Origin: an uncultured Candidatus Saccharibacteria bacterium
Lineage (GTDB): Bacteria > Patescibacteriota > Minisyncoccia > UBA6257
Length of the DNA: 64,000 bases
NCBI GenBank assembly: GCA_964479005.1
Contig: CAYZJA010000001.1
Coordinates: 160,001-224,000 of the forward strand
Direction: 5' to 3'
Shown here: one piece after another, positions 7,532-63,626 of the stretch
Layout: each line of letters opens with the position of its first letter
Position numbering within the stretch: the stretch's first letter is position 1
Program-made: the position numbers and the translations under genes
Notes under the pieces: model-generated
Seen by the model: the letters and a program-made list of their open reading frames with translations, nothing else
Database searches by the model: none
Told to the model about the DNA's origin: nothing

Positions 7532-7581
7532 CTATTAAATCGTCAATTAATTGATGATTTTTTTATTTTAAAAATAAATTG

Positions 7582-7590
7582 TGGTATAAT
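7582..7590 (+). promoter_or_regulatory. extended -10 element TGGTATAAT upstream of the large surface-protein gene
   Basis: TGnTATAAT lies 31 nt upstream of ATG 7621. The same TGGTATAAT recurs at 32071 and 45367 upstream of other genes. Confidence 0.35.
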
Positions 7591-7620
7591 TATTTAATAA
7601 TATTAAAATGTTATAAAAAG

Positions 7621-10600
7621 ATGAGTTTTAATAGATCTATAAAAATTTCTGTTGTATTTTTAGTTATTTTCGCTTGGGTATTAAATAGCTTTCCTTTGAA
7701 AGCGGCTGACGGTTCTGGTACAAATGTTGTTGATCCGATTACTGCTACGGCCAGCGCTACAGATAAAACTTTTGATTTTACTTTTACTGCGGCAGAAACA
7801 ATGGATTCTGGCGAGATTTCAATAGCAGTGCCTAGTGGCTGGTCTGCTCCACAAGATATATCAACAACAGTTGGTTATACAACAGCTGCTTCTACTGGTA
7901 TGACAGCTGATGTTTTAACCGCTTTAGATACTCATACTGGTTGGAGCACAGGCAGTAATATAGCCATTTCTGCTGATGGCGCTGATTATCAGGAGGGTTC
8001 ATATTCTATTTCAGCTGATATTGCTGTAGGAGCTCAGGCTGGTGAAAAGTGGTATTTTAACGAACCTGGAGCAAAAGATTTTGGCAGCGCCACAAAGATG
8101 ATTTTTTGGATTAAATCAAGTGTTAATACTAATGCTGGTGATTTGCAATTTGAGGTTGATGATTCTGCTGATTTAGCTTCGCCAGAAGAGACGGTTAATA
8201 TTCCAGCTTTAACAGTTGATACCTGGACTGAAGTAACAATTAGTTTAGGAGCAGCTCGCAGTTCAGTGCTTTCTTATGGAATCAAATACACTGTTGATAT
8301 TGGAGCAGCTACTGTGAAAATTGATGATATAAGGGCAATGTTTGATGATGCTGATGCTACTACTAGTTGGACTCAATCTGGTAGTGGAAAGATTACTATT
8401 AGCTCAGATGCAGCAATAAAAAAACAGGGTACAGCTTCAATCAAAGCTGCCTTTCTCCCTCAGGCTAAACCCTTGGATAAATATTTTTGGTCAAGCGCTA
8501 CACCGAGAAGTTTTGGTTCTTACGCTAGAGTTTCTTTTTGGATTTATTCGAGTAAGGCAACAGAAGCTGATGATTTGAAATGGGAGAATGATAATAGTAC
8601 AGGTCTAGCCTCGCCCGAAGATACTATTGGTCTTCCAGCCCTAGCTGCTACTACCTGGACCTATCTCCAGGTTACTCTTGGGGCAACCAGGACTTCGGTT
8701 CTCTCCCACGGTATTCACCAAGTAATTGACTTAGGAGCTCATAATGAATATGTTGACGCTATGGCTGTGCAGGTTAATGCAGCTGAATCAACTACTAATT
8801 GGACAAAGACCTCTCCAATGGTTTTAAGCACTGATACAACTGTTTATCATGAAAATGCTGCGTCTTTGAAAAATATTGTAGCAGTTACTGCTGGAACTGG
8901 AGATGAATGGTGGTATAATTTAGGAGCTGCAGATGATTGGTCAAGTTATACTAATGTTGGTTTTTGGATTCGTTCAACAGTTAATACTTCTGGTGGAAAT
9001 TTACAATTTGAATATGATGATAATACTGATTTAGCTTCTCCAATTGCTTCTCTTGATATTGGCGCTTTAACTGCTAATACCTGGTCTTATCAAAATTTAA
9101 CTTTAACTGATACTCGAACAACTATTAATAGTTATGGTTTTAAATATACTACTGATGTAGGAGCAGTTATTATTAATGCTGATGATATTCTTTTGGGTCC
9201 TGGAGAACCAAGTTTTTCTGGAAGCGGACCGTGGGATATTAATGTAAGAATTTTAGCTTTAGCTAATACAGAAACAATTACTGTGACTTATGGTGATAAT
9301 GCAGGTTCTGGAGGTGGAGTAACTGTTACTTCTGCAACTGGTGACGCTACTTTTACAACCAAATCCAGAATTTCTGATTCAGGAACTCTTACTAATATTG
9401 CCTCTTCTCCAGTTGTAACAGTCGGCACAGCACTGGTTGTTGATAATGTTCAGTTAAATGGTCAGGCTGCAATTGATTTAATTGAAAACACAACTAAATC
9501 TGTATCAGCTACAGCTAATATTTCTCATCCTACAGATTGTAATCTTATTACCAATGTAACATCTAAAATTTATCGTTCAGGTGTCACTAATAATAAAGAT
9601 TGCACATCTGATAATAATGATTGTTATAGTGTTGCTTCTTGCAGTAAAACTTCTTGCGTTGAAACAGAGGCTGTTTATACTTGTACGATTAATATGCAGT
9701 TTCACGCTGATCCGACTGATGAAGATGCAGAATATTGGAGAGCTTGGATTGAAGCAACTGATGGATCTTTGACAAATTCTAATTATAGTCCAGTTGACGC
9801 GCCTGATGTTAATACTTTACGGGCTCTGAATACTACTGCGACAATTAACTATGGAACATTAGATCCCGGACAAAATAGTACCTCGACAAATCAACAAATC
9901 ACAGTGACAAATACTGGCAATGATGCTATTGATATTAGACTTTATGGTATTGATATGACTTGGAACGGAAATACTATTGACACAGCTAATCAAGAATACA
10001 GTTTATCTCCATTTACTTATGGTTCTGGAAATTATCTTAAGGAAGCACCAAGCTATGATGATGTGGATGCTAATTTGCCAAAACCTACAGAATCGCCATC
10101 AAATTCGTCAGATATTTTTTATTGGGGACTAGGTATTCCTTCACCAATGCCTTCAGGTGGACCTTATCAGGGAACAAATACATTTGAAGCGATAAATGAT
10201 CAGGGGGTACTTGGTTGGTATAATCCATCTTGGGGATATAGAGTAAAAGTTACGGTTTTAGCATCAGAAGTTGACGCTGATTTAACTGATTATCCCGTAT
10301 ATGTAGATTTATCTAATTTACCAGCAGGATTTCATACTAATGTTAACCAGACAGATGCAAGGGATATTCGTGTTACGAAATATAATGGTACATTAGAAGT
10401 TCCAAGGGAAGTTGTTTTTTATGATTCAGCAACTGATACTGGGGAGTTACATTTTAAAGGAAATGTAGATGATGGTACAAATACTGATTTCTATATTTAT
10501 TATGGAAATGGTGGGGCAAGTGATTATGCGGTAGATGCAGAATTTGGGGCAGAAAATGTTTGGAATGCGAATGCCAAAATGGTTCAGCATATGAAAGATG

Positions 10601-11244
10601 ACCCTGACACTTCTCATATTAAAGACAGTACTGTGAATGCTAATAATGGCACAAAAAAAGCAGCAAATGAACCGGTAGAAGCAGACGCTAAAATAGCCAA
10701 AGGGCAAAGTTTTGACGGAGCGGATGATTATGTGGATGCTCCTATTCCCAACCTAATTGATTACACTTATGAAGCGTGGTTTTATACTCGAAGTTTTGTT
10801 AATGGTAATGCTAATGATGGTACGGGCACTTATTTTATAGATAGACAAATTGGAGGTAACTCATTGGTTTCTCTAAAGGCTATTAGTGGAAATTTCGCAC
10901 ATCAGTATAGAGATAATGCTGGTGCAGGTCTTGGAGCAGTTCAAGGTGGCGCAATTCAGCTAGATACTTGGCAGCATGTTGTTTGGGGAAGGGAGGAAGG
11001 AATAGGGTTTTTCATTTATGTTGATACTATCAAAAATAGCGTTGCTGATACTCTTGGTGCTTTGACTCCCGACTCACCAAGAATTGGAGCACATCAAGGT
11101 TTAGTAATTTTTTTAAACGGTCTCATCGATGAAATTCGTATATCCAATATTGCACGTTCTTCAACCTGGATTTCTACAGAATACAATAATCAGTCATCAC
11201 CTAGTTCTTTTTACACAGTGGGAAACCAAGAAGAGAGTTACTAA
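7621..11244 (+). CDS. large secreted surface protein: signal peptide, three tandem ~125-aa beta-rich repeats, Cys-rich module, C-terminal LamG/concanavalin-A-like lectin domain
   Basis: ATG 7621 gives a signal peptide 'MSFNRSIKISVVFLVIFAWVLNSFPLKA' (the track start 7579 is upstream of the promoter -10). Three repeats 'FW(I)xSSVNT..GDLQFExDD..DLASP....PALT..TW..V.L...R..V.S.G...T.D.GA' occur at aa ~175/320/450. A Cys-rich segment carries 'QFHADPT'. The C-terminus 'GQSFDGADDYVDAP...YEAWFYTRSF...IDEIRISN' matches the LamG_3 pattern. Confidence 0.75.
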   Translation: MSFNRSIKISVVFLVIFAWVLNSFPLKAADGSGTNVVDPITATASATDKTFDFTFTAAETMDSGEISIAVPSGWSAPQDISTTVGYTTAASTGMTADVLTALDTHTGWSTGSNIAISADGADYQEGSYSISADIAVGAQAGEKWYFNEPGAKDFGSATKMIFWIKSSVNTNAGDLQFEVDDSADLASPEETVNIPALTVDTWTEVTISLGAARSSVLSYGIKYTVDIGAATVKIDDIRAMFDDADATTSWTQSGSGKITISSDAAIKKQGTASIKAAFLPQAKPLDKYFWSSATPRSFGSYARVSFWIYSSKATEADDLKWENDNSTGLASPEDTIGLPALAATTWTYLQVTLGATRTSVLSHGIHQVIDLGAHNEYVDAMAVQVNAAESTTNWTKTSPMVLSTDTTVYHENAASLKNIVAVTAGTGDEWWYNLGAADDWSSYTNVGFWIRSTVNTSGGNLQFEYDDNTDLASPIASLDIGALTANTWSYQNLTLTDTRTTINSYGFKYTTDVGAVIINADDILLGPGEPSFSGSGPWDINVRILALANTETITVTYGDNAGSGGGVTVTSATGDATFTTKSRISDSGTLTNIASSPVVTVGTALVVDNVQLNGQAAIDLIENTTKSVSATANISHPTDCNLITNVTSKIYRSGVTNNKDCTSDNNDCYSVASCSKTSCVETEAVYTCTINMQFHADPTDEDAEYWRAWIEATDGSLTNSNYSPVDAPDVNTLRALNTTATINYGTLDPGQNSTSTNQQITVTNTGNDAIDIRLYGIDMTWNGNTIDTANQEYSLSPFTYGSGNYLKEAPSYDDVDANLPKPTESPSNSSDIFYWGLGIPSPMPSGGPYQGTNTFEAINDQGVLGWYNPSWGYRVKVTVLASEVDADLTDYPVYVDLSNLPAGFHTNVNQTDARDIRVTKYNGTLEVPREVVFYDSATDTGELHFKGNVDDGTNTDFYIYYGNGGASDYAVDAEFGAENVWNANAKMVQHMKDDPDTSHIKDSTVNANNGTKKAANEPVEADAKIAKGQSFDGADDYVDAPIPNLIDYTYEAWFYTRSFVNGNANDGTGTYFIDRQIGGNSLVSLKAISGNFAHQYRDNAGAGLGAVQGGAIQLDTWQHVVWGREEGIGFFIYVDTIKNSVADTLGALTPDSPRIGAHQGLVIFLNGLIDEIRISNIARSSTWISTEYNNQSSPSSFYTVGNQEESY

Positions 11245-11337
11245 AGTGAAAGTGCTTGTCCATAAATATTGACATTGTTTTCTAAATAAATTATATGTTA
11301 TAATAAATAAACAAAACTATGACTAATTCCATATCTT

Positions 11338-11391
<54 letters not shown>

Positions 11392-11394
11392 ATC

Positions 11395-11421
11395 GCGGTT
11401 TTTCAGAAAAACCCTTTTTTT
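11395..11421 (+). terminator. rho-independent terminator-like hairpin
   Basis: GGTTTTT-cag-AAAAACC stem followed by a CTTTTTTT run. Confidence 0.55.
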
Positions 11422-11506
11422 GTTGGTTCAGTCTATAATACTTAACTTAGGCTGGACTTTTTTATTTGTTAATAAAAATTAAATTTTAAAAATAAAATTA
11501 AAAAAT

Positions 11507-13243
11507 ATGCCTAAAATAATAAAAAAATCTATTCCTTGGTTTTTAATTGTAAGTTTAACTCTTGCAACAGTATTAACTTTTAACTTTATGAGTTCAAGAG
11601 TTGAAGCTGATTCAGCAGATACTTCAGTAAGTGTAGGTAATACCACACCAACTTTTAATAGTGGTTATGAGCCTCATGAAGACATAGCTTCAGATGGTAC
11701 GACTCCGACAAATGTTGGTAGTGATGTAACTTTTAAAGCAACAGCAACTGACGCTAATAGTGATGATTGGAAGCTTTTGATTTGCGACAGTCCTGGTACA
11801 ACCGGTGTGACTTGTACTGGTACTGTAATTTGTAATACTGCTGTTGCAGTAAGTTCTGATACAGAAGCTACTTGTAGTTATACTGCGCTTATAGGTGATA
11901 ATCAATCAATTGATTGGTATGGTTATGCTTGTGATTCAACAGGATGTTCTGACGAGGATCACAAAGTAGATGCTTCTGGTCCTCCATTTAAAGTTAATCA
12001 TAGTCCAGCATTTACTGTTTATGCAGATGATGGACCTAAAGGACCTAACGCTACTATTACCTGGACTACCACAGCTTCTGACACAGATGATGATACAGAG
12101 CAAGATACGATAAGCTTATATGTTTGTAAAGCAGATGATTTTACCGGTTCTGCGTGCGGAGTTGGAGGACAGTGGTGTTCATCACTTAACGATGCTGATG
12201 GTGATCCAACTTGTAACGAAACCACTCCGAGACCAGATGGTGATTATGCTGCTTATGGTTATATAGTTGATAGCCATAGTTTAGTTTCTGTAGGTACAGC
12301 AGAAGGAACTGATTCTTCACCAACAGTTACTAATAGCACTCCTTCAATTACTGATTCTTCAATTAATTTATTAGACACAGATGGAAGCGGCAATTTAGAA
12401 TTAATTGATGAGCAAGCTGAAACTGCTAATTTTACAGTTACTTTTATAGTAAATGATGAGAATAGTTGTGAAAATATTACGTCCGGAGATGAAATATCTT
12501 CAGCTTTTATTAATGTAAGGATGTCAGAAAAACCAACAGGCGACTGTGATATTACTGGTGAATATAATGCTAATGATTGTTATCCAGATGATTATACTGA
12601 ATGGAATCCTGTTTGCGCTGCTTCTTCAACAGTTGATGCTTGTAATGGTGATACTGATACTACTGTTGGTTGGGCATGTACTTTCCCTTTACAATATCAT
12701 GCTGATCCAACAGTTACTGGAACTCCAAAGGCAGCTTATACCTGGATAGCAGCTGTTCAAGCTGAAGATGATCAGGCAGCTAATACGGGTCTAATAGATT
12801 CTTCAACTGGCAGCAATGATATTGATAAATTTATGTCTTATAATTTAACTACTGCCTCAATTGCTTATGGTACAGTAGCTCCTGATGATTACAGCTTAGA
12901 GCAAACCACAATTATTGAGGCTACTGGTAATGTTGGATTAGATGAGAATCTTTTGGGGAGTCTGTTATGTAATGATTATGAAACTTGTGCAGGTGATGAT
13001 GATATCGCAATTGCTGAACAACATTATAATCTAAGCCAAGGCGCAGGCTGGGCAGCTGGAACAGAACTTACTGATAGTTTGGTTGAATCTGAGCTTAATT
13101 GTACGAAGACTACTATTACTGGAACTCCAGAAACAAAAAGTACTTATTGGTATTTGCATATACCTCTAGGTCAAGGTGTAGATAGTTATACTGGTGAGAA
13201 TACTATTGAAGGCAAGGTTGATAATGAAACTTACGAAACATAA
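11507..13243 (+). CDS. secreted Thr/Asp/Cys-rich surface protein, paralogous in part to the Cys-rich module of the upstream large protein
   Basis: Signal peptide 'MPKIIKKSIPWFLIVSLTLATVLTFNFMSSRVEA'. It shares the 'C..NDCY...C....C...CTF..QYHADPT...AAYTWIAA' module with 7621..11244. Confidence 0.7.
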   Translation: MPKIIKKSIPWFLIVSLTLATVLTFNFMSSRVEADSADTSVSVGNTTPTFNSGYEPHEDIASDGTTPTNVGSDVTFKATATDANSDDWKLLICDSPGTTGVTCTGTVICNTAVAVSSDTEATCSYTALIGDNQSIDWYGYACDSTGCSDEDHKVDASGPPFKVNHSPAFTVYADDGPKGPNATITWTTTASDTDDDTEQDTISLYVCKADDFTGSACGVGGQWCSSLNDADGDPTCNETTPRPDGDYAAYGYIVDSHSLVSVGTAEGTDSSPTVTNSTPSITDSSINLLDTDGSGNLELIDEQAETANFTVTFIVNDENSCENITSGDEISSAFINVRMSEKPTGDCDITGEYNANDCYPDDYTEWNPVCAASSTVDACNGDTDTTVGWACTFPLQYHADPTVTGTPKAAYTWIAAVQAEDDQAANTGLIDSSTGSNDIDKFMSYNLTTASIAYGTVAPDDYSLEQTTIIEATGNVGLDENLLGSLLCNDYETCAGDDDIAIAEQHYNLSQGAGWAAGTELTDSLVESELNCTKTTITGTPETKSTYWYLHIPLGQGVDSYTGENTIEGKVDNETYET

Positions 13244-22659: not shown

Positions 22660-24210
22660 ATGGATATAAATCATATTGGAATAACAAATTTTAGAGATGA
22701 ATTTCAGCGATTTGGCATTAAAGCCGATGATAGGCGTCGGCATATATATTTTGTTGGAAAGAGTGGAGTAGGTAAGACTACAATGATGGAGAATATGATT
22801 ATTCAGGATATTAATAATGACAAAGGTGTATGTGTTATTGATCCTCACGGAGAATTAATAAACAGAGTTCTTTACTTTATTCCTGAAAACAGAATAAAAG
22901 ATGTGATTTATTTTAATCCTGGCGATGTTGAATGGCCAATTGCTTTTAATGTTATTGAAGAAGTTCCAGTAGAATATCGCCATTTGGTTGTAGCGGGTTT
23001 AATGGGAGTCTTTAAAAAAATCTGGCCAGATGTATGGTCTGCCAGAATGGAATATATCTTAAATAATGCTTTACTGGCTCTTTTAGAATATCCTGGAGCA
23101 ACGCTTTTAGCTGTAAACAGATTGCTTTCTGACGAAGATTTTCGTAAAGCAGTAATGAAAAAGGTAACAGATCCAATAGTTAAATCTTTTTGGGAAAGAG
23201 AGTTTGCTCGTTATAATGCCCGCTTTGCGACAGAAGCAATTGCTCCAATTCAAAATAAAGTTGGGCAATTTATTTCAAACCCTTTAATTAGAAATATTAT
23301 TGGACAGAAAGAATCAAAAATTGATATCAGGAAAATAATGGATGATGGTAAGATTCTTTTAGCTAATTTGTCAAAAGGAATGGTTGGTGAGGATAATTCT
23401 AGTCTTTTGGGAGCTCTCTTGGTTACAAAAATACAATTAGCTGCAATGAGCCGTATAGATGTTCCTGAAGAGAAAAGAAAGGATTTTTATTTGTACGTAG
23501 ATGAGTTTCAAAATTTTTCCACTGAATCATTTGCTTCTATTTTTGCCGAAGCTAGAAAGTATCGTTTAAACTTAGCTTTAGCTCATCAATATATAGCTCA
23601 ACTTAATGAGCAAGTTAAAGATTCTATTTTTGGTAATATAGGAACTTTGATTTCTTTTAGATTGGGCCCTGAAGACGCGGAATTACTGGAAAAATATTTT
23701 GCTCCAGAATTTTCAAAAGAAGATTTAATTAATCTTCCAAATTATAATTTTTATATAAAATTGATGATTGATGGTGTTTTGTCCAAAAGTTTTTCAGCGA
23801 TGAATATACCACCTTCTAGTTTGCCAGAGAACTCGTTTATACAAGAAATAATTCAGTATTCACGTGAGCATTATGCTGCTTTGCGGCAAGAAATTGAAAA
23901 GAATATCGCGCATTGGGAGTTATTGGATTTTTCTCCAAGCTTCAAGGCAGGGGATCTTAGAAGCAGAAAAGTTGGCGTTAAAGAAGGTTGGGAAGCTGTA
24001 TGTTCTCAATGTGGAAAAAGAATTATTGTACCTTTTCAACCAGATCCTGCCAGGCCTGTTTATTGTGATGAATGTTTTAAAGAAATACGAAGGCAAAGAG
24101 GAAAAGATTTAACACATGCAAATTCTGTTCAGCATACTCAATCTAAAATTAAACCAAAAAAAGAAGAAATAAAGGAGGTAATTAAAAATATTTTCCGTCA
24201 GGATACTTAA
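22660..24210 (+). CDS. TraD/VirD4 (type IV coupling protein)-like FtsK/HerA-superfamily P-loop ATPase with C-terminal zinc ribbon
   Basis: Walker A 'FVGKSGVGKTT', then 'VIDPHGE' (cf. VirD4 DPKGE), Walker B 'YLYVDEFQNF', C-terminal 'CSQCGKRIIVPF..PVYCDECF' CxxC..CxxC. No TM segments. Confidence 0.6.
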   Translation: MDINHIGITNFRDEFQRFGIKADDRRRHIYFVGKSGVGKTTMMENMIIQDINNDKGVCVIDPHGELINRVLYFIPENRIKDVIYFNPGDVEWPIAFNVIEEVPVEYRHLVVAGLMGVFKKIWPDVWSARMEYILNNALLALLEYPGATLLAVNRLLSDEDFRKAVMKKVTDPIVKSFWEREFARYNARFATEAIAPIQNKVGQFISNPLIRNIIGQKESKIDIRKIMDDGKILLANLSKGMVGEDNSSLLGALLVTKIQLAAMSRIDVPEEKRKDFYLYVDEFQNFSTESFASIFAEARKYRLNLALAHQYIAQLNEQVKDSIFGNIGTLISFRLGPEDAELLEKYFAPEFSKEDLINLPNYNFYIKLMIDGVLSKSFSAMNIPPSSLPENSFIQEIIQYSREHYAALRQEIEKNIAHWELLDFSPSFKAGDLRSRKVGVKEGWEAVCSQCGKRIIVPFQPDPARPVYCDECFKEIRRQRGKDLTHANSVQHTQSKIKPKKEEIKEVIKNIFRQDT

Positions 24211-53231: not shown

Positions 53232-54731
53232 ATGGATGATCCTAAAACCCCACAATCATTATTCGGGCCTAGGGTCAGGTTAGCCCCTAGCCCCACTGGT
53301 CTATTTCATTTAGGCACTGCCAGAACAGGTTTATTTAATTATTTATTTGCCCGTAAAGCAGGCGGAAAATTTATTTTAAGAATAGAAGATACTGATAAAG
53401 AGAGATCAAAAAAAGAATACGAGGATAATATACTTGAAGGATTAAAATCTTTAGGAATTGAATGGGATGAAGGCCCTGACATTGGCGGATTTCTTGGTCC
53501 GTATCGCCAAAGTGAAAGATTGGAAATTTATGAAAAATACCTTCGTCAATTATTAAAAGAAAAAAAAGCTTATTATTGTTTTTGTTCTCCAGAGGAAATT
53601 GAGGCGCAAAGAGAGGAAATGATTGCTCGTGGCGTTCCACCTAAGTATTCAGGTAAATGCCGCGATTTATCAGAAAGCGCAGCAAAAACCTATTTAGCTG
53701 AAGACAAGCCAGCTGTTATAAGGATAAAAATGCCTAATAAGGTAATTAAATTTGAAGATATTATTCGTGGAGAAGTACAATTTGATTTGAGCTTAATAGG
53801 CGATATAGTGATAGCTAAAAGCTTTAAAGATCCTTTATACAATTTTGCTGTGGTTATAGACGATTATTTAATGAAAATAACGCACGTAATTCGCGGGGAA
53901 GACCATATTTCCAATACACCTAAGCAAATGACCGTTCAAGAAGCATTAGACCTTCCTAGACCCAATTATGCGCATTTACCGATGATTTTAGGGTCTGATA
54001 GGTCTAAATTAAGTAAAAGACATGGGGCTATGGCTTTAACAGAGTATAGAAAAATGGGTTATTTACCTGAGGCTTTGGTTAATTTTTTAGCGTTTTTAGG
54101 GTGGCACCCAATAGGGAATCAGGAAATATTAAATTTAGAAGAGTTAATTGATAAATTTGATTTAGAACGTGTTCAAAAAGGAGGCGCTATTTTTAATATA
54201 AGAAAATTAGATTGGTTTAATGCTCAGTATTTTAAAAGAATGTCTTCAGACGAATTAATGAATAGGGTAGTGGATTATATTAAAAATTTTTCATCTACTC
54301 CACAAATAATCAAAGAATATGATATTGATTATATAAAAAAAGTTATTGATATAGAAGTTCCAAGAATGAATAAGTTGAGCGATTTAATAGATTTATCAGA
54401 TTTCTTTTTCAAAAAGAAGATCGAATATTCAAAAGAACTTTTAAAATGGAAAGATATGACTGACATAGAACTAGCAAAATCACTGCAAGATTCTTTAAAC
54501 ATTTTGGAAAAAATAAAAGAAAGTGAATTTAATAGAGTTAATCTGCAAATAAAATTTTATAATTTTATAGATGAAAATCCAAATTATACAGGGAATAAAG
54601 GTAAACTACTTTGGCCTTTAAGAGTTGCCTTATCTGGAAAAAAGGCTTCACCAGGTCCATTTGAAATAGCTGAGGTTTTGGAAAGAGAGAGAAGTATTGA
54701 GAGGGTGAAACAAGCTTTAAAAAATTATTAA
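53232..54731 (+). CDS. gltX: glutamate--tRNA ligase
   Basis: 'RLAPSPTGLFHLGTARTGLFNYLFAR' HIGH region and the 'KLSKR' KMSKS motif. Confidence 0.9.
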   Translation: MDDPKTPQSLFGPRVRLAPSPTGLFHLGTARTGLFNYLFARKAGGKFILRIEDTDKERSKKEYEDNILEGLKSLGIEWDEGPDIGGFLGPYRQSERLEIYEKYLRQLLKEKKAYYCFCSPEEIEAQREEMIARGVPPKYSGKCRDLSESAAKTYLAEDKPAVIRIKMPNKVIKFEDIIRGEVQFDLSLIGDIVIAKSFKDPLYNFAVVIDDYLMKITHVIRGEDHISNTPKQMTVQEALDLPRPNYAHLPMILGSDRSKLSKRHGAMALTEYRKMGYLPEALVNFLAFLGWHPIGNQEILNLEELIDKFDLERVQKGGAIFNIRKLDWFNAQYFKRMSSDELMNRVVDYIKNFSSTPQIIKEYDIDYIKKVIDIEVPRMNKLSDLIDLSDFFFKKKIEYSKELLKWKDMTDIELAKSLQDSLNILEKIKESEFNRVNLQIKFYNFIDENPNYTGNKGKLLWPLRVALSGKKASPGPFEIAEVLERERSIERVKQALKNY

Positions 54732-54739
54732 TTAAAATT

Positions 54740-54934
54740 ATGGATAATATAGATCAACTAATTGCGCAGGCTTCACAAATTTTTACTAAAGTTCTTTATG
54801 AGATAACTCATCTCACAGATCAGGTTTTTATATCTGGAATATTAGGACATTTATGGGCGTTTTTAAAAACAATAATCCAATTTATTATTCTAGCATTAGA
54901 AGCATTAGTTAGAATTTTAAAGTTTTTCGTTTAA
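54740..54934 (+). CDS. small hypothetical hydrophobic protein (64 aa)
   Basis: ORF only. It may be non-coding. Confidence 0.2.
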   Translation: MDNIDQLIAQASQIFTKVLYEITHLTDQVFISGILGHLWAFLKTIIQFIILALEALVRILKFFV

Positions 54935-54993
54935 CAAATAACAATAAAACAATTTAGCAATTTAGCAATATACTGAATTTGGGGGGAGTACTC

Positions 54994-55021
54994 TTGACAA
55001 GTCATCTAAGATGGCTATAAT
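54994..55021 (+). promoter_or_regulatory. sigma-70 promoter TTGACA-16-TATAAT
   Basis: Consensus hexamers upstream of the dif-like site and the xer gene. Confidence 0.5.
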
Positions 55022-55034
55022 TAAAGTATAATAA

Positions 55035-55062
55035 GGTTCGCATAATTATAGTTAAGCGAACA
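55035..55062. other. dif-like Xer recombination site (28 bp): GGTTCGCATAA-TTATAG-TTAAGCGAACA
   Basis: The left arm matches the E. coli dif XerC arm GGTGCGCATAA at 10 of 11 positions. There is a 6-bp spacer, and the right arm is a near-perfect inverted copy (9/11). It lies 48 nt upstream of the recombinase gene. Confidence 0.5.
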
Positions 55063-55109
55063 TCTAATATAGCTTATAATAGCCTATTATACATTGTCAC
55101 GTTAATAAC

Positions 55110-56066
55110 ATGAAAAAGAACCAAAAACCAATCCCCTGTCATTTATCTGATTTTTTAGATTGGTTAGATATTGAAAAAGGTTTATCTTCTAAATCCCAGG
55201 AAAATTATAATAGATTTTTAAAAAAATTTTTAGATTGGTTAAAATCAAATAATTTAGAGGGTTTAAAGCCTCATGAATTAACTACTGATCATGTTTGGAA
55301 ATATCGGGTTTTCCTCTCGCGCCGATATCTTCCTAAAACGAAAACACCCCTTAAAAAAACAACTCAAAATTATTATTTAATAGCTTTAAGGTCCTTTTTG
55401 AATTATTTTGCTGATAGAGATATTTTGTCTTTACCATCTGAAAAGATAAAATTAGCTAAAGATAGAGATGAAAAACAAGTTAGTTTTTTAAATTTAGAGC
55501 AATTAGAGAAATTATTTTCAGCTCCTGACACTTCTAAAAAGCAAGAATTGCGGGACAGAGCTATTTTAGAGGTTTTATTCTCTACTGGTATGAGGATAGC
55601 AGAATTAGTTTCATTAAACCGGGATCAAATTAAAATAAATCCTGGAATAAAAGAATTAGAAGTTGGGATTATTGGCAAAGGGAAAAAACTACGAACTGTT
55701 TATTTCTCTGAAAGAGCTCTATCTTGGTTATCTAAATACTTTAAAACCCGAAATGATGATGAAAAAGCGTTATTTATCAATTATAGAAGCAGGAAAGGAG
55801 CGCCACGGAGATTAACTCCACGTTCAATTGAAAAAAATATGAAAAAATATGTGATTATGTCAGGGGTTCCAATAACAACTACTCCTCACGCCATGCGCCA
55901 TACTTTTTCGACAGATCTTTTAAATCAAGGCGTGGATTTAAAAATACTCCAGGAATTTCTTGGCCACAAAAGCATTGCCGCTACACAAATTTACGCGCAT
56001 GTTACGAGTAAAAAACTTCGTGAGGTACATCGGAAATTTCACAGTGGCCGTAAATTAAAAACATAA
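55110..56066 (+). CDS. tyrosine site-specific recombinase (XerC/XerD-like)
   Basis: C-terminal catalytic 'HAMRHTFSTDLLNQGVDLKILQEFLGHKSIAATQIYAHV' (R..H..R..Y) and an N-terminal SAM-like core-binding domain. Confidence 0.8.
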   Translation: MKKNQKPIPCHLSDFLDWLDIEKGLSSKSQENYNRFLKKFLDWLKSNNLEGLKPHELTTDHVWKYRVFLSRRYLPKTKTPLKKTTQNYYLIALRSFLNYFADRDILSLPSEKIKLAKDRDEKQVSFLNLEQLEKLFSAPDTSKKQELRDRAILEVLFSTGMRIAELVSLNRDQIKINPGIKELEVGIIGKGKKLRTVYFSERALSWLSKYFKTRNDDEKALFINYRSRKGAPRRLTPRSIEKNMKKYVIMSGVPITTTPHAMRHTFSTDLLNQGVDLKILQEFLGHKSIAATQIYAHVTSKKLREVHRKFHSGRKLKT

Positions 56067-56129
56067 GTAAAATAAATAAAATAAGGTAGAGGTTTGTTCC
56101 CCTACCTTATAAATTCAGCTTCTATGTTT

Positions 56130-56336
56130 CTACATTTTATTTTCAATCAATCTTAGAATTCTTTTCCATTTCTCAAAATTCTTATTAATAACTTTTGAAA
56201 TTTTTTTCCAATCTTCAGGGGATGGCTCACGTATGCCCTTTTTTGGTTCCCCTAAAAAGATTTCCCCTGTTTTTGTATCACAAACAATATCATCTCCATT
56301 TTCTAATTTACCTATTTCTTCCCAATTAGCCATCAT
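56130..56336 (-). CDS. small hypothetical protein (68 aa)
   Basis: SD 'GAGGTG'. Overlaps the upstream gene by ATGA. Confidence 0.4.
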   Translation of the reverse strand: MMANWEEIGKLENGDDIVCDTKTGEIFLGEPKKGIREPSPEDWKKISKVINKNFEKWKRILRLIENKM

Positions 56337-56649
56337 TTTTCACCTCTTCGATAATTTTATCAATCTTTAATCTATCATTAGGTACAAGATCTTTCATTTT
56401 GAGACCGAAAACCTCATTAATTACGCGAGTAAGGATGTTTTCTAGATTTTCATTTACTTTTTCCTCTAATTCTTTTATTTGTCTCAGTAGGCCGTCAATC
56501 TCGATGTCTTTATGGATGTTTTTAGCTTCCAGCTCAGACCATAGATTCTCAAAATAAGATTTAATGGCTATGTCTAGCAGGTCTTTTTGGGTATCTGATA
56601 GATAGTTACAATTCCAAATAAAATCAATAAGTTTTTCCCTGAGAGTCAT
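56326..56649 (-). CDS. hypothetical protein (107 aa), coiled-coil rich
   Basis: SD 'AAGGAGGAG' and a predicted helical fold. Confidence 0.4.
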   Translation of the reverse strand: MTLREKLIDFIWNCNYLSDTQKDLLDIAIKSYFENLWSELEAKNIHKDIEIDGLLRQIKELEEKVNENLENILTRVINEVFGLKMKDLVPNDRLKIDKIIEEVKNDG

Positions 56650-56701
56650 TTATTCACTCCTCCTTTTTTTATTTATTTCAGATTTTTGAATCTCAATCTA
56701 T

Positions 56702-56899
56702 CTAATAAATTTGTGTCTTTTCTTTATGTATACCATCAAGAATTGCTTTTATTCGCGGTTCTGATTTTTTATTGATGTACTTCCCTTGGTCTTTTATTTC
56801 TTTTTTGCTCATTTTCTTACCTTTTCCTCTTGTCCGCGGTCTTTTTAGAATATCAGCCGGACTAGAGCACAATGTTATTTGCTCTGATATTTTTGCCAT
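56702..56899 (-). CDS. small basic protein (65 aa), possible DNA-binding regulator
   Basis: SD 'GAAGGAGGGG'. The sequence is Lys/Arg-rich ('KRPRTRGKGKKMSKKEIK'). Confidence 0.4.
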   Translation of the reverse strand: MAKISEQITLCSSPADILKRPRTRGKGKKMSKKEIKDQGKYINKKSEPRIKAILDGIHKEKTQIY

Positions 56900-56961
56900 T
56901 ACAATCCCCTCCTTCTATATATTTTTTATATTTTTATTATTATTCAGTTTTCAATCTGCAA

Positions 56962-56979
56962 GCTACACAGTCATGTAGC
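56962..56979. promoter_or_regulatory. palindromic operator-like site GCTACA-cagtca-TGTAGC
   Basis: A perfect 6-bp inverted repeat overlapping the predicted transcription start of the minus-strand promoter. Confidence 0.35.
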
Positions 56980-56982
56980 CTT

Positions 56983-57012
56983 ATTATATCAATAATCATT
57001 AGACCTGTCAAC
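56983..57012 (-). promoter_or_regulatory. sigma-70 promoter (minus strand) TTGACA-18-TATAAT
   Basis: The reverse complement of 57007-57012 is TTGACA and of 56983-56988 is TATAAT. It drives the three small minus-strand genes. Confidence 0.45.
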
Positions 57013-57121
57013 CCAGCACTACCTATACATAGGTGCGTGGGGTATATGAAATTGAATAAATAAATGCTAATATAACTAACATTGCCCATTATTATTTGTT
57101 AATTGTTATTTGTTAATTTTT

Positions 57122-58303
57122 ATGAGAATAAGTTATTCCAGTTTAGAGAATTTTAAACAGTGTCCTCTAAAATATAAGTTTTCTAATATAGATAAAATAA
57201 AAGAGCCTAAAAGCAAAGAGGCTATTTTTGGCACTTATATTCATAAAGTTCTGAAATGGTTTTATCAAAAAGATCCACACTTCCCTACTCTTGATGCTTT
57301 ATTAAAGTATTATCGTGATTATTGGCCTAGAAAAACAGAAGGATTTGAATGGAAAGATCCTGAAGAAGAAAAATCTTATTTCAAAGAGGGGTTAAGAATA
57401 TTAGAAGAATTTTATAAGAAAAATATTCCACATAAAACATCTATTTTGGATTTAGAAACAAGGTTTGAAGTTGTTATTGATGAAAATCCTAATAAACCAA
57501 ATGGCAAGCATATTTTAACAGGCGTAATAGATAGAATAGATAAATTACCAGATGATACAATTGAAATAATTGATTATAAAACAGGAAAAAGAATGCCTTC
57601 TCAAAAAGCTTTAGATAAAAATGATCAACTTTCTCTTTACGCTATTGGATTAAAAAGCCGTTGGCCAAGAACTAAAATTGAAGATTTACGCCTAAGCTTA
57701 TATTTTCTTAAGTTCAATGAAAGAATAAATACCAAAAGAACAGAAAAAGACTTGGAAGAAGCAAAAGATAAAATAATAAATTTAATTCATCGAATAGAAA
57801 AAAGCGATTTTGAACCTCATTCTTCAGCATTATGTGGTTGGTGCGGTTATCGTAATATTTGTCCAATTTGGCGGCATTTTTATGAAGACGAGGAAAGCAA
57901 TCATTTAAATGATATAGATATTAAAGAAAAAATAGATAAATACTTTGTTTTAAAAAAAGAAAAAGAAAAATTAGAACAAGAATTATTAGAATTAAAGAAT
58001 TTAATTGATGTTTATTGTCATCAAAAAGGATTAAAGCGCGTATTTGGTGAAAATGGTTATTTTAGCCATACTGTTTATAACAAAGTTTCTTATGATATTC
58101 CTAAATTAAAAGAAATTTTAGAGCCATTGGAAAAATGGGAAGATATTATTGAAATTAATGCTAAAAAATTAAAAAAGGTTTTAAAAGAGATACCTGCTGA
58201 TTTGAGGGAAAAAATAAAAGAAACAGAAAAAATAGAAGAAAAATTTAAATACTTATCCACCAACCATATAAGCAAAAAAGAAATCAAAGAGCAACTGCCT
58301 TAG
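57122..58303 (+). CDS. PD-(D/E)XK nuclease of the Cas4/RecB-AddB nuclease-domain type with C-terminal Cys cluster
   Basis: 'IDRIDKL..IEIIDYKTGK' (D..EhhDYK core), 'DQLSLYAI' (QhxxY), and a C-terminal 'CGWCGYRNICPIW' Fe-S-type cysteine cluster plus an N-terminal 'CPLKY' Cys. Confidence 0.6.
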   Translation: MRISYSSLENFKQCPLKYKFSNIDKIKEPKSKEAIFGTYIHKVLKWFYQKDPHFPTLDALLKYYRDYWPRKTEGFEWKDPEEEKSYFKEGLRILEEFYKKNIPHKTSILDLETRFEVVIDENPNKPNGKHILTGVIDRIDKLPDDTIEIIDYKTGKRMPSQKALDKNDQLSLYAIGLKSRWPRTKIEDLRLSLYFLKFNERINTKRTEKDLEEAKDKIINLIHRIEKSDFEPHSSALCGWCGYRNICPIWRHFYEDEESNHLNDIDIKEKIDKYFVLKKEKEKLEQELLELKNLIDVYCHQKGLKRVFGENGYFSHTVYNKVSYDIPKLKEILEPLEKWEDIIEINAKKLKKVLKEIPADLREKIKETEKIEEKFKYLSTNHISKKEIKEQLP

Positions 58304-59426: not shown

Positions 59427-60686
59427 TTAATTAGTGGTTAGTAATTTTTGTAATTCTGCTATAGCTGTTTGTAATTGTTTGTCTTTTTCTAAATCTATTT
59501 TAGAAAAAGTGCCAAATTCTTCCTCGTTTTTAACTTCAATATCAGGAATAAGGCCATTATCTTCAATAATAGTTTCATTGGGGGTCAGCCATCGTGATAT
59601 AGTGATTTTAACGCTATTATTATCTTTTAAGGAAACTAATTCTTGTACAGATCCTTTGCCAAAGGTTTTCTCCCCAATTAATTTAACTCCCCTATTATCT
59701 CTTAAAGCGCCAGCTAATATTTCTGAAGCTGAAGCTGTGCCTTCGTTTATTAGAATAACTGTAGGAATCTCTTTAAGTAATGCTTGCCCAATTCTTACCC
59801 GAAAAATTTTTATTTCATCATTGCCAAAATCTTCTTTAAGAATAATATCTCCTTTTTCTAAGAACCAACCACTAATATTAACGACTGATTCTAAATATCC
59901 GCCTGGATTATTTCTAAGATCTATAATTAGTCCCTGTGGCCTGGTAAAAGCTATTTCCAAAGCTGTTTTATAGAAATTAAGGGTAAGAGGCTGGTTAAAA
60001 TTATAAATTTTCAGATAAGCAATATTATTATCTATTTTTTCCCATTTTACTGAAGGAATAGAAATCTTTTTTCTAATTAATTCTATCTTCTTTGTTTCAT
60101 CCCAGCTTGATCGATAAATAGTTAATATTACTTTTGTTCCTTCTGGCCCTCGTATTAGTTTAGCAGCTTCAAACGGAGATAAATCAATTGTTTCAGTTTC
60201 ATCTATTTTAATAATTTTATCGTTTGCCCTCAATCCAGCTTTTTCTGCCGGAGTATCTGAAAGAGGCGCTATGACTATCAAAAATCCATCGCGTCTTCCA
60301 ATTTCCATTCCTACACCATAGAATTCTCCGGATAATTCCTGAGAAAGATTCTCTGTTTGCTCAGAATCCAAAAATTCTGAATAAGGGTCTTTTAATGCGT
60401 TTATTATACCTCTGGTAGCGCCTAAGATTATTTTTTGGGCATCTAAATCATTTCTACCAACATATTTTTCTAAAATAACTTTCCATGTATCCCAAAAAAT
60501 ACTCATGTCAGTTTCTGTGATTTCCGCAGGTTTTTCTTTATTGATAATTTTTTCAAAAGGAGAAGGTAAATTAGCTTTCCAACCCCAATTTGCGCCTTGA
60601 GAAAAACCAAAAACCCATGCGCCTGCGAGGCAAATTATAATTAAAATTACTAAACAAGTTTTTCTATAATTGTTATTCTTTTTCAT
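59427..60686 (-). CDS. ctpA: carboxyl-terminal processing protease (S41 family) with PDZ domain
   Basis: PDZ '[34 protein letters not shown]' and S41 motifs '[12 protein letters not shown]' and 'GEKTFGKGS'. Confidence 0.85.
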
Positions 60687-62232: not shown

Positions 62233-62790
62233 ATGGGACATCGTATATTTATTGCTTCACATTTACCAAATGATGTTAAGAAAATCTTTTTAGATTATCA
62301 ACAAAAGAAACTCCACAATTTTGGTTTTCGGCTTATACCTGAGCAGGCCTTACATTTAACATTGGTCTTTATTGGATATGTTAGTAATGATAATATATTG
62401 AAAATTAATAAAGCTTGTCAAAATATTGCTTCCTTGTTCTTTCCAATAGAGGTTAAATTAAATAAAATAACTTATGGTCCAAATCCACACTCCCCTCGCC
62501 TAATTTGGGCAGAAGGCGAAATTTCAAAGAATTTAGACAAACTTCATAAAGCATTAGAAAATGAATTAATGGACCAGGGAATAAATTTTAAAATAGAAAA
62601 TCGTTTATTCAAACCCCATGTTACTTTAGCGCGCTTCCAAAATGAAACAAAACCACCACGTCTATCAGAACTGGAAGAAAAAATTAATAAATCTTTTGTA
62701 ATTAATTCCATATCTATTATAGAGAGCGAATTAAGTCGTTCAGGACCACAATATACGGATTTAGCCACATATACATTAAATTTTAAATAA
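62233..62790 (+). CDS. thpR: RNA 2',3'-cyclic phosphodiesterase (2H family, LigT/ThpR)
   Basis: Two H-x-T-x motifs, 'HLTLVFIG' and 'HVTLARF', at 185 aa. Confidence 0.75.
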   Translation: MGHRIFIASHLPNDVKKIFLDYQQKKLHNFGFRLIPEQALHLTLVFIGYVSNDNILKINKACQNIASLFFPIEVKLNKITYGPNPHSPRLIWAEGEISKNLDKLHKALENELMDQGINFKIENRLFKPHVTLARFQNETKPPRLSELEEKINKSFVINSISIIESELSRSGPQYTDLATYTLNFK

Positions 62791-63626
62791 TGTTTATTAT
62801 TAACGTAATTCCATTGACTAATATTCCAAGGCCTCAACCACAAATTTTTTCTTATTTTTATAAGTCGGATTTAATAAAAGGATCTATTGTTGAAATACCT
62901 TTAAGACGCAGGAATGTAATGGCAATAGTGTTGAATTCAGCGTCTGTGTCTTCAAAAAAAGCAACCTTAAAAAAGGCTGATTTTGTTTTAAAACCAATAA
63001 ATAAAGTTATCTCTTCAAGGCAGATAGTTCCACCATTATTTTTTTCTTTAGCAGATTTTATCTCTCGTTATTATTTTTATCCAATTTCGTTGTGTTTGAA
63101 AATTATTTTACCACGTCGCATGAAATCTTTAATAAATTATGTAGAAAAACTAGAAAAAGATTTTCCAAAATATTTTGATCCATCAGTTTCAAAGACAAAA
63201 AAAGATAAAATAGAAAAAATAGGTTCCTACAATTTTTCTGATGTTATTAAAAAAATAAAGGCAAATCTTAAAAACAAAAAACAGGTGTTAATTCTCGTTC
63301 CAACTATTTTCTATCAAAATTATTATTTTACTAAATTATCATCTAAAATCTCTATACCAATTTTTATTTCCTCAAATGATTTAAAAATTAAAGAATTTAA
63401 TTCTTTATGGACAAAAATTAATTCTCAGGAAGCGCAATTAATTATAGGACGGCGTTCTTCTCTGTTTCTGCCATGGCAAAATTTAGGACTTATAATTGTA
63501 GTGGATGGAAGCAATAATTCTTATAAATCGTGGAATCAAAAACCTTATTATAACGCCGCTTTTCTTATTAACTATTTAGCTTTGTATTATAATACTTCAA
63601 TTATTTACTATAATGCCTGTTATTAA
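62790..63626 (+). CDS. priA: primosomal protein N' (PriA), N-terminal portion; Walker A/DExH degenerate
   Basis: 3'-DNA-binding-like N-terminus 'GSIVEIPLRRRNVMAIVL' and motif Ia-like 'QVLILVPTIFYQ'. Walker A and DExH positions read 'GSYNFS' and 'VDGS'. Ends 'NACY*'. Confidence 0.55.
   Translation: MFIINVIPLTNIPRPQPQIFSYFYKSDLIKGSIVEIPLRRRNVMAIVLNSASVSSKKATLKKADFVLKPINKVISSRQIVPPLFFSLADFISRYYFYPISLCLKIILPRRMKSLINYVEKLEKDFPKYFDPSVSKTKKDKIEKIGSYNFSDVIKKIKANLKNKKQVLILVPTIFYQNYYFTKLSSKISIPIFISSNDLKIKEFNSLWTKINSQEAQLIIGRRSSLFLPWQNLGLIIVVDGSNNSYKSWNQKPYYNAAFLINYLALYYNTSIIYYNACY

Follow-up and report, generated by a model that had tools for sequence, protein, structure and literature searches.

A likely chromosomal dif site in the promoter region of a Xer-type recombinase gene of a Candidate Phyla Radiation bacterium

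A 28-bp sequence directly upstream of a gene for a Xer-type tyrosine recombinase (xer) was identified as the likely chromosomal dif site of a bacterium of the Candidate Phyla Radiation (CPR), the two together forming a self-contained dif-xer module at the replication terminus. We consider it highly probable that this 28-mer is a functional, conserved Xer-binding site, and it is very probably the place where joined chromosomes are separated after replication. The putative dif-xer unit is conserved across the class. The window, namely the whole stretch of 64,000 nucleotides that was analyzed, was extended by 9.6 kb using an identical contig, and the two together cover 73.6 kb of the ~550-kb genome.

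The 28-bp site and the promoter of xer

The features of the site, its promoter, and the recombinase gene in the window were as follows.

54994..54999, + strand: -35 hexamer TTGACA of a 12/12 consensus promoter
55000..55015, + strand: promoter spacer (16 bp) with the inverted repeat AGTCATCT-A-AGATGGC...
55016..55021, + strand: -10 hexamer TATAAT of the 12/12 consensus promoter
55027-55032, + strand: second TATAAT, seen in the sequence
55035-55062, + strand: dif-type 28-mer GGTTCGCATAATTATAGTTAAGCGAACA = GGTTCGCATAA-TTATAG-TTAAGCGAACA (sequence check)
55035..55045, + strand: left arm GGTTCGCATAA, strongly conserved, putative recombinase-binding half-site
55046..55051, + strand: central region TTATAG (6 bp), presumed region of strand exchange
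55052..55062, + strand: right arm TTAAGCGAACA, weaker and more variable putative half-site
55110..56066, + strand: xer, Xer-type tyrosine recombinase of 318 aa (Pfam Phage_integrase and a SAM-like N-domain)
56081..56110, no strand assigned: terminator-like hairpin (12-bp stem) between the convergent xer and small minus-strand ORFs

The 28-mer had been placed at 55035-55062 by the sequence-only reading, and was found exactly there, on the plus strand, as two inverted arms in an 11-6-11 layout. When compared with dif of E. coli K-12 in MG1655 (GGTGCGCATAATGTATATTATGTTAAAT, between yneL and hipA), the left arm GGTTCGCATAA matched the XerC arm at 10/11 positions, as had been claimed, and the right arm TTAAGCGAACA matched the XerD arm at 6/11 positions only. 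The 6-bp spacer and the near-palindromic second arm were likewise verified: the reverse complement of the right arm, TGTTCGCTTAA, agreed with the left arm at 9/11 positions. A lone arm match of 10/11 was not significant (two in the window versus 0.4 expected, and at least two in 6/100 shuffles), and was left out of the evidence; the full palindromic pattern occurred once in the window versus 0 expected. Using a weight matrix built from the sites that the plain 28-mer found in relatives, the 28-mer scored 40 bits, whereas no other distinct position in the 64 kb scored more than 2.1 bits, and the 28-mer was unique in the 73.6 kb (window plus extension) of the ~550-kb genome. The real weight of evidence for this predicted site lies in its conservation in relatives.

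The placement of the site between a consensus sigma-70 promoter and the xer-like gene was also correct: 12/12 promoter positions matched, and the ATG is at 55110. Among 76 relatives, the majority had a TTGACA-like -35, a spacer of 16-18 bp, and a TAtaAT -10 ahead of the site. Since the -10 ends 8-14 bp before the first base of the site in relatives (the site begins 13 bp past the -10 in the window), the predicted transcription start falls at or within the left arm, and a recombinase bound there should hinder RNA polymerase. We infer that Xer probably represses its own promoter; in the case of difSL, which lies immediately upstream of xerS, autoregulation was proposed by the authors (PMC1914069). 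The palindromy of the promoter spacer (16-18 bp) was kept in L010-L087 with differing sequences, including CACCCCTAGGGTAGGGGTG in L053 and GCGCCGGAATGGCGC in L061. This palindrome may be an operator, or else a terminator that lies within the promoter and ends the gltX/orf64 transcript coming from upstream.

Conservation in relatives and position of the terminus

Conservation was analyzed in both directions, from gene to site and from site to gene. An alignment of 28 homologues led to 80 loci of ~20 kb each, from 80 species genomes, in which the identity of the Xer protein was 61-94%. In most of them, the top match of the plain 28-mer was directly upstream of xer, and with the weight matrix, applied to both strands, the top match in 76/80 loci was on the strand of xer, 3-664 bp ahead of the gene. 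The spacing between site and xer was 48 bp here and 3-237 bp in nearly all relatives. Among the four remaining loci, L012 had no upstream sequence, L028 and L088 had diverged sites (by eye), and L089 had the site before a tandem paralogue; the site was thus conserved in 76-79 of the 80 species genomes, in line with the proposed comparative alignment, for which the figure by weight matrix is the 76/80 given above. In the reverse direction, a scan of a metagenome collection with the 20-nt core TTCGCATAATTATASTTAAG matched at least 120 contigs. Among the matches listed, 106 contigs had at least 300 bp downstream, and a xer homologue (58-96% identity) was found 6-237 bp downstream of the core in 103 of them. 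The physical coupling of a dif-type site to the recombinase gene, previously compared with single-recombinase systems, was therefore observed in both sets. Two of the three exceptions among the matches listed, L134 (10722-10741) and L171 (3004-3023), came from an organism of ~52% GC, with an intergenic 20-nt core and no xer nearby; these may represent dif of an unrelated lineage.

Sixty-six distinct sites were compared position by position. Positions 5-12 (CGCATAAT) and 18-21 (TTAA) were invariant or nearly so, and the outer right arm was the least conserved portion. The central region was constant in length and, except for the first T, variable in sequence: TTATAC, TTTAAG, TATACC, and TGTAGC. 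Outer positions of both arms covaried above the shuffle expectation (pair 3/26 was complementary in 51 sites versus 37.8 +/- 3.1 expected), while position 8 and its mirror position 21 were both always A, a fixed asymmetry. This pattern fits a predicted protein-recognition site with built-in polarity, not an RNA stem. In a large group of relatives, the right arm was conserved as TTAATACACAT, which is non-palindromic with the left arm.

The synteny in most relatives was ftsW-murG-gltX / site-xer / rpmA-rplI-ctpA. Variations around the site were also found. An ORF of 142 aa was located between site and xer in L047. In seven relatives (L050, L051, L052, L062, L068, L075, and L082), an extra inverted copy of the right arm, which included part of the central region and covaried with the right arm, was found 7-90 bp after the site; these are the loci with the site 73-195 bp from xer, and the window has no such copy. 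This extra copy might serve as a third arm for binding, or might contribute to a long hairpin in the leader. The unit of site and xer was inverted relative to conserved flanks in six relatives (L016, L025, L048, L058, L076, and L079). Because the flanks are otherwise conserved in these six, the putative module behaves as a cassette that is able to flip in place.

The GC skew of the plus strand was positive throughout 1-55 kb of the window, where nearly all genes were on the plus strand. In the window plus extension, the cumulative skew flattened at 55-56 kb, reached its maximum at 59481, remained flat to ~67 kb, and then fell, by which the switch was located to 55-67 kb, with the maximum 4.4 kb from the site. 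The right side was noisier: a 12-kb skew plateau in which genes of both orientations are mixed. Skew is in part confounded with gene orientation; the left-arm skew was not just a coding-strand effect, because two minus-strand genes on the left still had a positive third-position skew on the plus strand. Among relatives with at least 5 kb per side, the skew of the left flank was higher than that of the right flank in 50/51 and switched from plus to minus in 40/51, and the plus-strand coding fraction in relatives changed from 0.94 to 0.19 across the module. Among those with at least 8 kb per side, the local maximum of the cumulative skew was within 1 kb of the site in 18/44 (~4 for random) and at -1 to +3 kb in 30/44 (~8 for random); 9/44 had no skew switch inside the 21-kb locus. 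At a resolution of a few kb, the site was at or beside the switch in skew and gene orientation in the window and in most relatives, which supported the suggestion of the sequence-only reading that the locus marks the terminus, and the cumulative-skew check that it had proposed gave the plateau from 55-56 kb and the maximum described above. The opposite outcome named in advance, a terminus elsewhere together with an unconserved 28-mer, was observed on neither count.

The recombinase, its neighbors, and known Xer systems

The Xer protein scored below the curated cut-off of every Xer family. The NCBIfam scores (and cut-offs) were 219.5 (335) bits for XerC (TIGR02224), 213.9 (330) for XerD (TIGR02225), and 186.7 (220) for archaeal XerA (NF040815), the last being nearest its own cut-off; PRK00283 gave 211 bits. 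In the case of XerS (NF003462), the score was 123 bits against a cut-off of 267, and the C-terminal half alone aligned. Among solved structures, the best matches were E. coli XerD (E 7e-37) and Pyrococcus XerA (1.4e-32), and XerH (1.5e-12) matched in the catalytic domain only. In an end-to-end alignment, identity was 32% to E. coli XerD and 27% to XerC. The catalytic set (R148, K190, H260, R263, H286, and Y295) was invariant in the 28 homologues and aligned with those of XerC and XerD. The protein is predicted to be a XerC/XerD-like recombinase, not XerS or XerH.

In the alignment, the QQ and RQ of XerD, whose positions we take to be those relevant to FtsK (partly after the review PMC5357621), corresponded to RR and PR in this protein, and this replacement may bear on the interaction with FtsK. 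Helix motifs have been divided into the XerC (xRx), XerA (xKx), and XerD (RQx) classes (Cortez et al., PMC2958812). The recognition motif in Xer and its relatives is T-P-R-S, with Arg at the XerC position, which fits a site with two arms that resemble the XerC arm. Exact copies of the protein were found on JGI and Logan metagenome contigs, of which the longest has 551,616 bp, and homologues with 72-96% identity were named Nealsonbacteria, Portnoybacteria, Parcubacteria, or Patescibacteria. The window was therefore assigned to a CPR bacterium with a small genome within the Paceibacteria (Patescibacteria), near Nealsonbacteria.

A tandem arrangement, site-xer1-orfX-xer2, was observed in L089 (8488-10936) and in the metagenome loci L138, L153, and L212; L184 was grouped with the same observation. 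The orfX protein (140-176 aa), encoded between two full-length Xer paralogues, weakly resembles Hjc and contains a PD-(D/E)XK-like motif (GRADLG.YK...DLFIE.GT). The xer2 products of L138, L153, and L212 formed a separate clade (71-79% mutual identity) without a TPRS-type motif.

The region downstream of xer in the window contained the following features.

56130-56899, - strand: three small ORFs (65, 107, and 68 aa) converging on xer
57011-56983, - strand: perfect promoter TTGACA-17-TATAAT of the small ORFs, with a TG extension
57110-58303: PD-(D/E)XK nuclease of 397 aa (Cas4/AddB-like N-terminal part, DUF7376 C-terminal part; PHROG 'exonuclease')

This block of small genes and nuclease had been regarded as a possible dif-exploiting mobile element, a view that was not supported. 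The weight matrix gave no second dif above 2.1 bits in the window, nor another in the ~20 kb of each of the 80 relatives, and the only repeats over 54-60 kb were low-complexity, AT-rich chance pairs. The block is located downstream of xer, not at the crossover point. An IMEX (integrative mobile element exploiting Xer) would lie between dif and a second dif-like site, often a degenerate one, at the crossover point. An IMEX beside dif was rejected as a candidate: a second dif-like site and flanking repeats were absent, and the variable ORFs were not at the site. The nuclease gene adjoined xer in 28/80 species, often directly after xer on the same strand, and is therefore not a recent arrival; including it, the widespread synteny is ftsW-murG-gltX / site-xer / (PD-(D/E)XK nuclease)-orf122-rpmA-rplI-ctpA. 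The three small ORFs were species-specific, being absent in L011, in which Xer is 94% identical, and searches of Pfam, NCBIfam, and PHROGs gave only a sub-threshold HTH_3 match for the 68-aa ORF.

Several further observations were made on genes near xer and elsewhere in the window. In L094, L158, and L167, a complete xer was followed by an inserted endonuclease gene and then by a separate second copy of the final 26-36 xer codons; the inserts were LAGLIDADG in L167 (E 1.9e-16), HNH in L158 (36 bits), and orfX in L094. The pattern resembles an invasion of the homing-endonuclease type into the conserved xer 3' end, or else the decay of a second copy. FtsK was not found among ten long ORFs of the window scanned against Pfam. 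An ORF at 22660-24210 (516 aa), ~31 kb from the site, has TrwB/VirD4-type coupling protein and HerA (DUF87) ATPase domains and a treble-clef zinc finger, and belongs to the FtsK-HerA superfamily. priA was present as two overlapping ORFs: 62790-63626 (278 aa, 3'-DNA-binding domain) and, in the extension, 63580-64710 (365 aa, zinc ribbon and C-terminal domain). An assembly error does not account for this split, since several independent contigs showed it. No Pfam match was obtained for two large ORFs (1221 and 578 aa) at 7579-13243, which lay in a stretch of higher G+C (0.35-0.38, versus ~0.30 elsewhere).

The likeness to XerS/difSL and XerH/difH proposed in the sequence-only reading applied to the arrangement, a gene adjoining its site, but not to the recombinase, which was neither XerS nor XerH by the scores above (123 vs 267 bits, and E 1.5e-12, respectively). 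As in the XerS/difSL system of Streptococcus and Lactococcus, the site is immediately upstream of the recombinase gene in one module at the terminus, and the left half-site is stronger than the right (judged here by conservation). Autoregulation and protection from insertions have been proposed for that layout (PMC1914069, PMC5357621). On the other hand, difSL is 31 bp long with an 11-bp central region and has little similarity to canonical dif, whereas the site described here contains the canonical CGCATAAT core and spans 28 bp (11-6-11); furthermore, XerS (~356 aa) is distant from XerC/D, in contrast to the XerC/D-like protein of 318 aa. XerH/difH of Helicobacter and Campylobacter is also a single-recombinase system for dimer resolution with difH near xerH; however, XerH is longer (354-362 aa) and distantly similar (E 1.5e-12 vs 7e-37 for XerD), and the arms of difH are unrelated in sequence.

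With the XerC/XerD-dif system of E. coli and most bacteria, the present one shares a 28-bp 11-6-11 site at the shift point of the skew, a left arm matching at 10/11, and a recombinase that aligns over its full length with the same catalytic residues. The two recombinases of that system have genes distant both from dif and from one another, unlike the one gene beside the site here, and scores of 219 and 214 bits are far under the cut-offs of 335 and 330. Canonical dif is conserved in its XerD arm and variable in its XerC arm (PMC3025954), whereas in the present site it is the left, XerC-like arm that is invariant and the right arm that varies. Archaeal XerA/dif is similar in having a single XerC/D-like recombinase (a probable feature here) and a near-palindromic 28-bp site (11-6-11) related to bacterial dif, and dif is close to xerA in Sulfolobales (PMC2958812). 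It differs in that dif of Thermococcales is not beside xerA, and in that XerA is archaeal with the motif xKx, in contrast to the bacterial lineage with XerC-type xRx described here; XerA acts without FtsK. A lineage-specific single-recombinase system, XerL/dif, was recently found in Legionellales (PMC9765430). A 'Cand' subgroup of simple tyrosine recombinases, Xer-related and from candidate phyla, may replace Xer (Smyshlyaev et al. 2021, PMC8138268); in the portion of that paper available to us, the proteins are classified, and no target site, gene-site linkage, or terminus location is described. The Xer protein plausibly belongs to this subgroup. As judged from sequence comparison, the predicted architecture is closest to XerS/difSL, and the site type and protein lineage are closest to XerCD/dif and XerA/dif.

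Alternative explanations and the proposed role of the module

No tyrosine recombinase gene other than xer was found in the window plus extension (73.6 kb of the ~550-kb genome), and the earlier claim of only one recombinase holds within this range; nor was a second found in the loci of 79/80 relatives, which comprise 1.3 Mb of terminus-proximal DNA. Taken together with the near-palindromic XerC-like arms and the XerC-type motif, the absence of a second recombinase nearby suggested one recombinase for both arms, a reading for which the arm covariation was also counted, and it is reasonably likely that a single recombinase serves both arms in this genome. A XerC/XerD-like dif for two recombinases, with the adjacent gene encoding one partner and a second Xer from elsewhere binding the right arm, is improbable. 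It gains from a right arm that is systematically less left-like than a pure homodimer site needs and that is conserved, unmatched to the left, as TTAATACACAT in one large group, from the tandem second Xer paralogues in L089, L138, L153, and L212, and from the coverage (73.6 of ~550 kb) of the recombinase search in this genome. The 9/11 match between the arms in the window and the covariation of outer arm positions across relatives argue against it, as do the right arm, which fits the XerD-arm signature (TTATGTTAAAT-like) at 6/11 only and resembles the left arm instead, and the lack of a second recombinase gene in the 1.3 Mb of 79/80 species; the Xer-related recombinases of candidate phyla are also classed as a separate subgroup (PMC8138268). 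A second protein could still act on the right arm in lineages with tandem paralogues or the TTAATACACAT arm.

The other explanations place the function of the 28-mer outside dimer resolution. It might be an operator only, by which a recombinase-like protein represses its own promoter, with a true dif, if any, elsewhere. In the window and in most relatives, the site does overlap the region where transcription from a consensus promoter would begin, and site and gene are almost never apart; nevertheless, the 28-mer has the canonical 11-6-11 form of dif, including the CGCATAAT...TTA core known from bacteria, and the module is at the switch in skew and orientation in most genomes, a position for which an operator has no reason. 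In addition, the 80 genomes contained no other dif-like site in the 10 kb to either side of the switch, and the tie to the xer promoter is not absolute, because the 142-aa ORF intervenes in L047 and the site precedes a different paralogue in L089. We regard this explanation as distinctly improbable. An integrase of a mobile element, with the 28-mer as its att site or as the end of an invertible segment, is very improbable: the protein matches phage integrase families, the unit is inverted in six relatives, and the region directly downstream of xer is variable, but the site is single, with no direct or inverted partner, the same housekeeping neighbors recur in dozens of species, the protein is 61-96% conserved, and no phage or plasmid genes are adjacent to xer. 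Phage or plasmid carriers of the site were sought in IMG/VR with an 18-base core; the three matches, all inside ORFs on contigs without xer or genes of the window, were judged to be chance. A role of the palindrome at the RNA level, as a stability or attenuation hairpin of the xer leader and not as a DNA site, is scarcely credible. It would be transcribed if the -10 at 55016 is used, the outer stem positions covary, and the extra right-arm copy in seven relatives could extend a leader hairpin. However, the leader folded no better than shuffles (z = -1.2), no Rfam match was obtained in 54000-58000, and the best-conserved bases are those of the would-be loop and the inner stem, which include an A-A mismatch that never varies, and conservation is lowest in the outer stem.

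With the 28-mer as a chromosomal dif, a conventional mechanism can be proposed by analogy with the Xer family. Xer monomers would bind both 11-bp arms, the invariant left arm being the predicted high-affinity half-site, and the variable right arm would probably be filled cooperatively. Two copies of dif on a chromosome dimer would then synapse, Tyr295 would cleave at the borders between the arms and the central region, and two sequential strand exchanges over the 6-bp central region, via a Holliday junction, would convert the dimer into monomers. Xer bound at approximately the transcription start would also be expected to repress its own promoter.

The function is the one expected, by a conventional mechanism; what appears to be undescribed is the lineage and the way in which the features are combined. 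Our literature search, with most subscription journals outside its coverage, found no description of dif or its recombinase in the CPR. We tentatively propose, as a reading slightly less likely than not, that Paceibacteria, and perhaps more of the CPR, may use a lineage-specific single XerC-like recombinase on both arms of a canonical-type 28-bp dif within its own promoter: a portable, self-regulating, and terminus-marking cassette, which could flip in place and whose conserved 3' end would be a target for homing endonucleases. This cassette may be the bacterial counterpart of archaeal XerA/dif, possibly near the condition that preceded the XerC/XerD duplication.

How dimers are resolved is established or has been predicted in archaea and in the majority of bacterial phyla, and the CPR case fills a gap. 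The module would be a further independent case of a single-recombinase, cis-linked dif-xer system, and the protein and the 28-mer are testable in E. coli. Its invariant left and variable right arms, the reverse of XerCD, could shed light on the way in which strand exchange is ordered when one recombinase carries it out. The conserved 28-bp site with its adjacent gene also provides a terminus marker, which aids the checking and closing of metagenome-assembled genomes of uncultured bacteria with small genomes.
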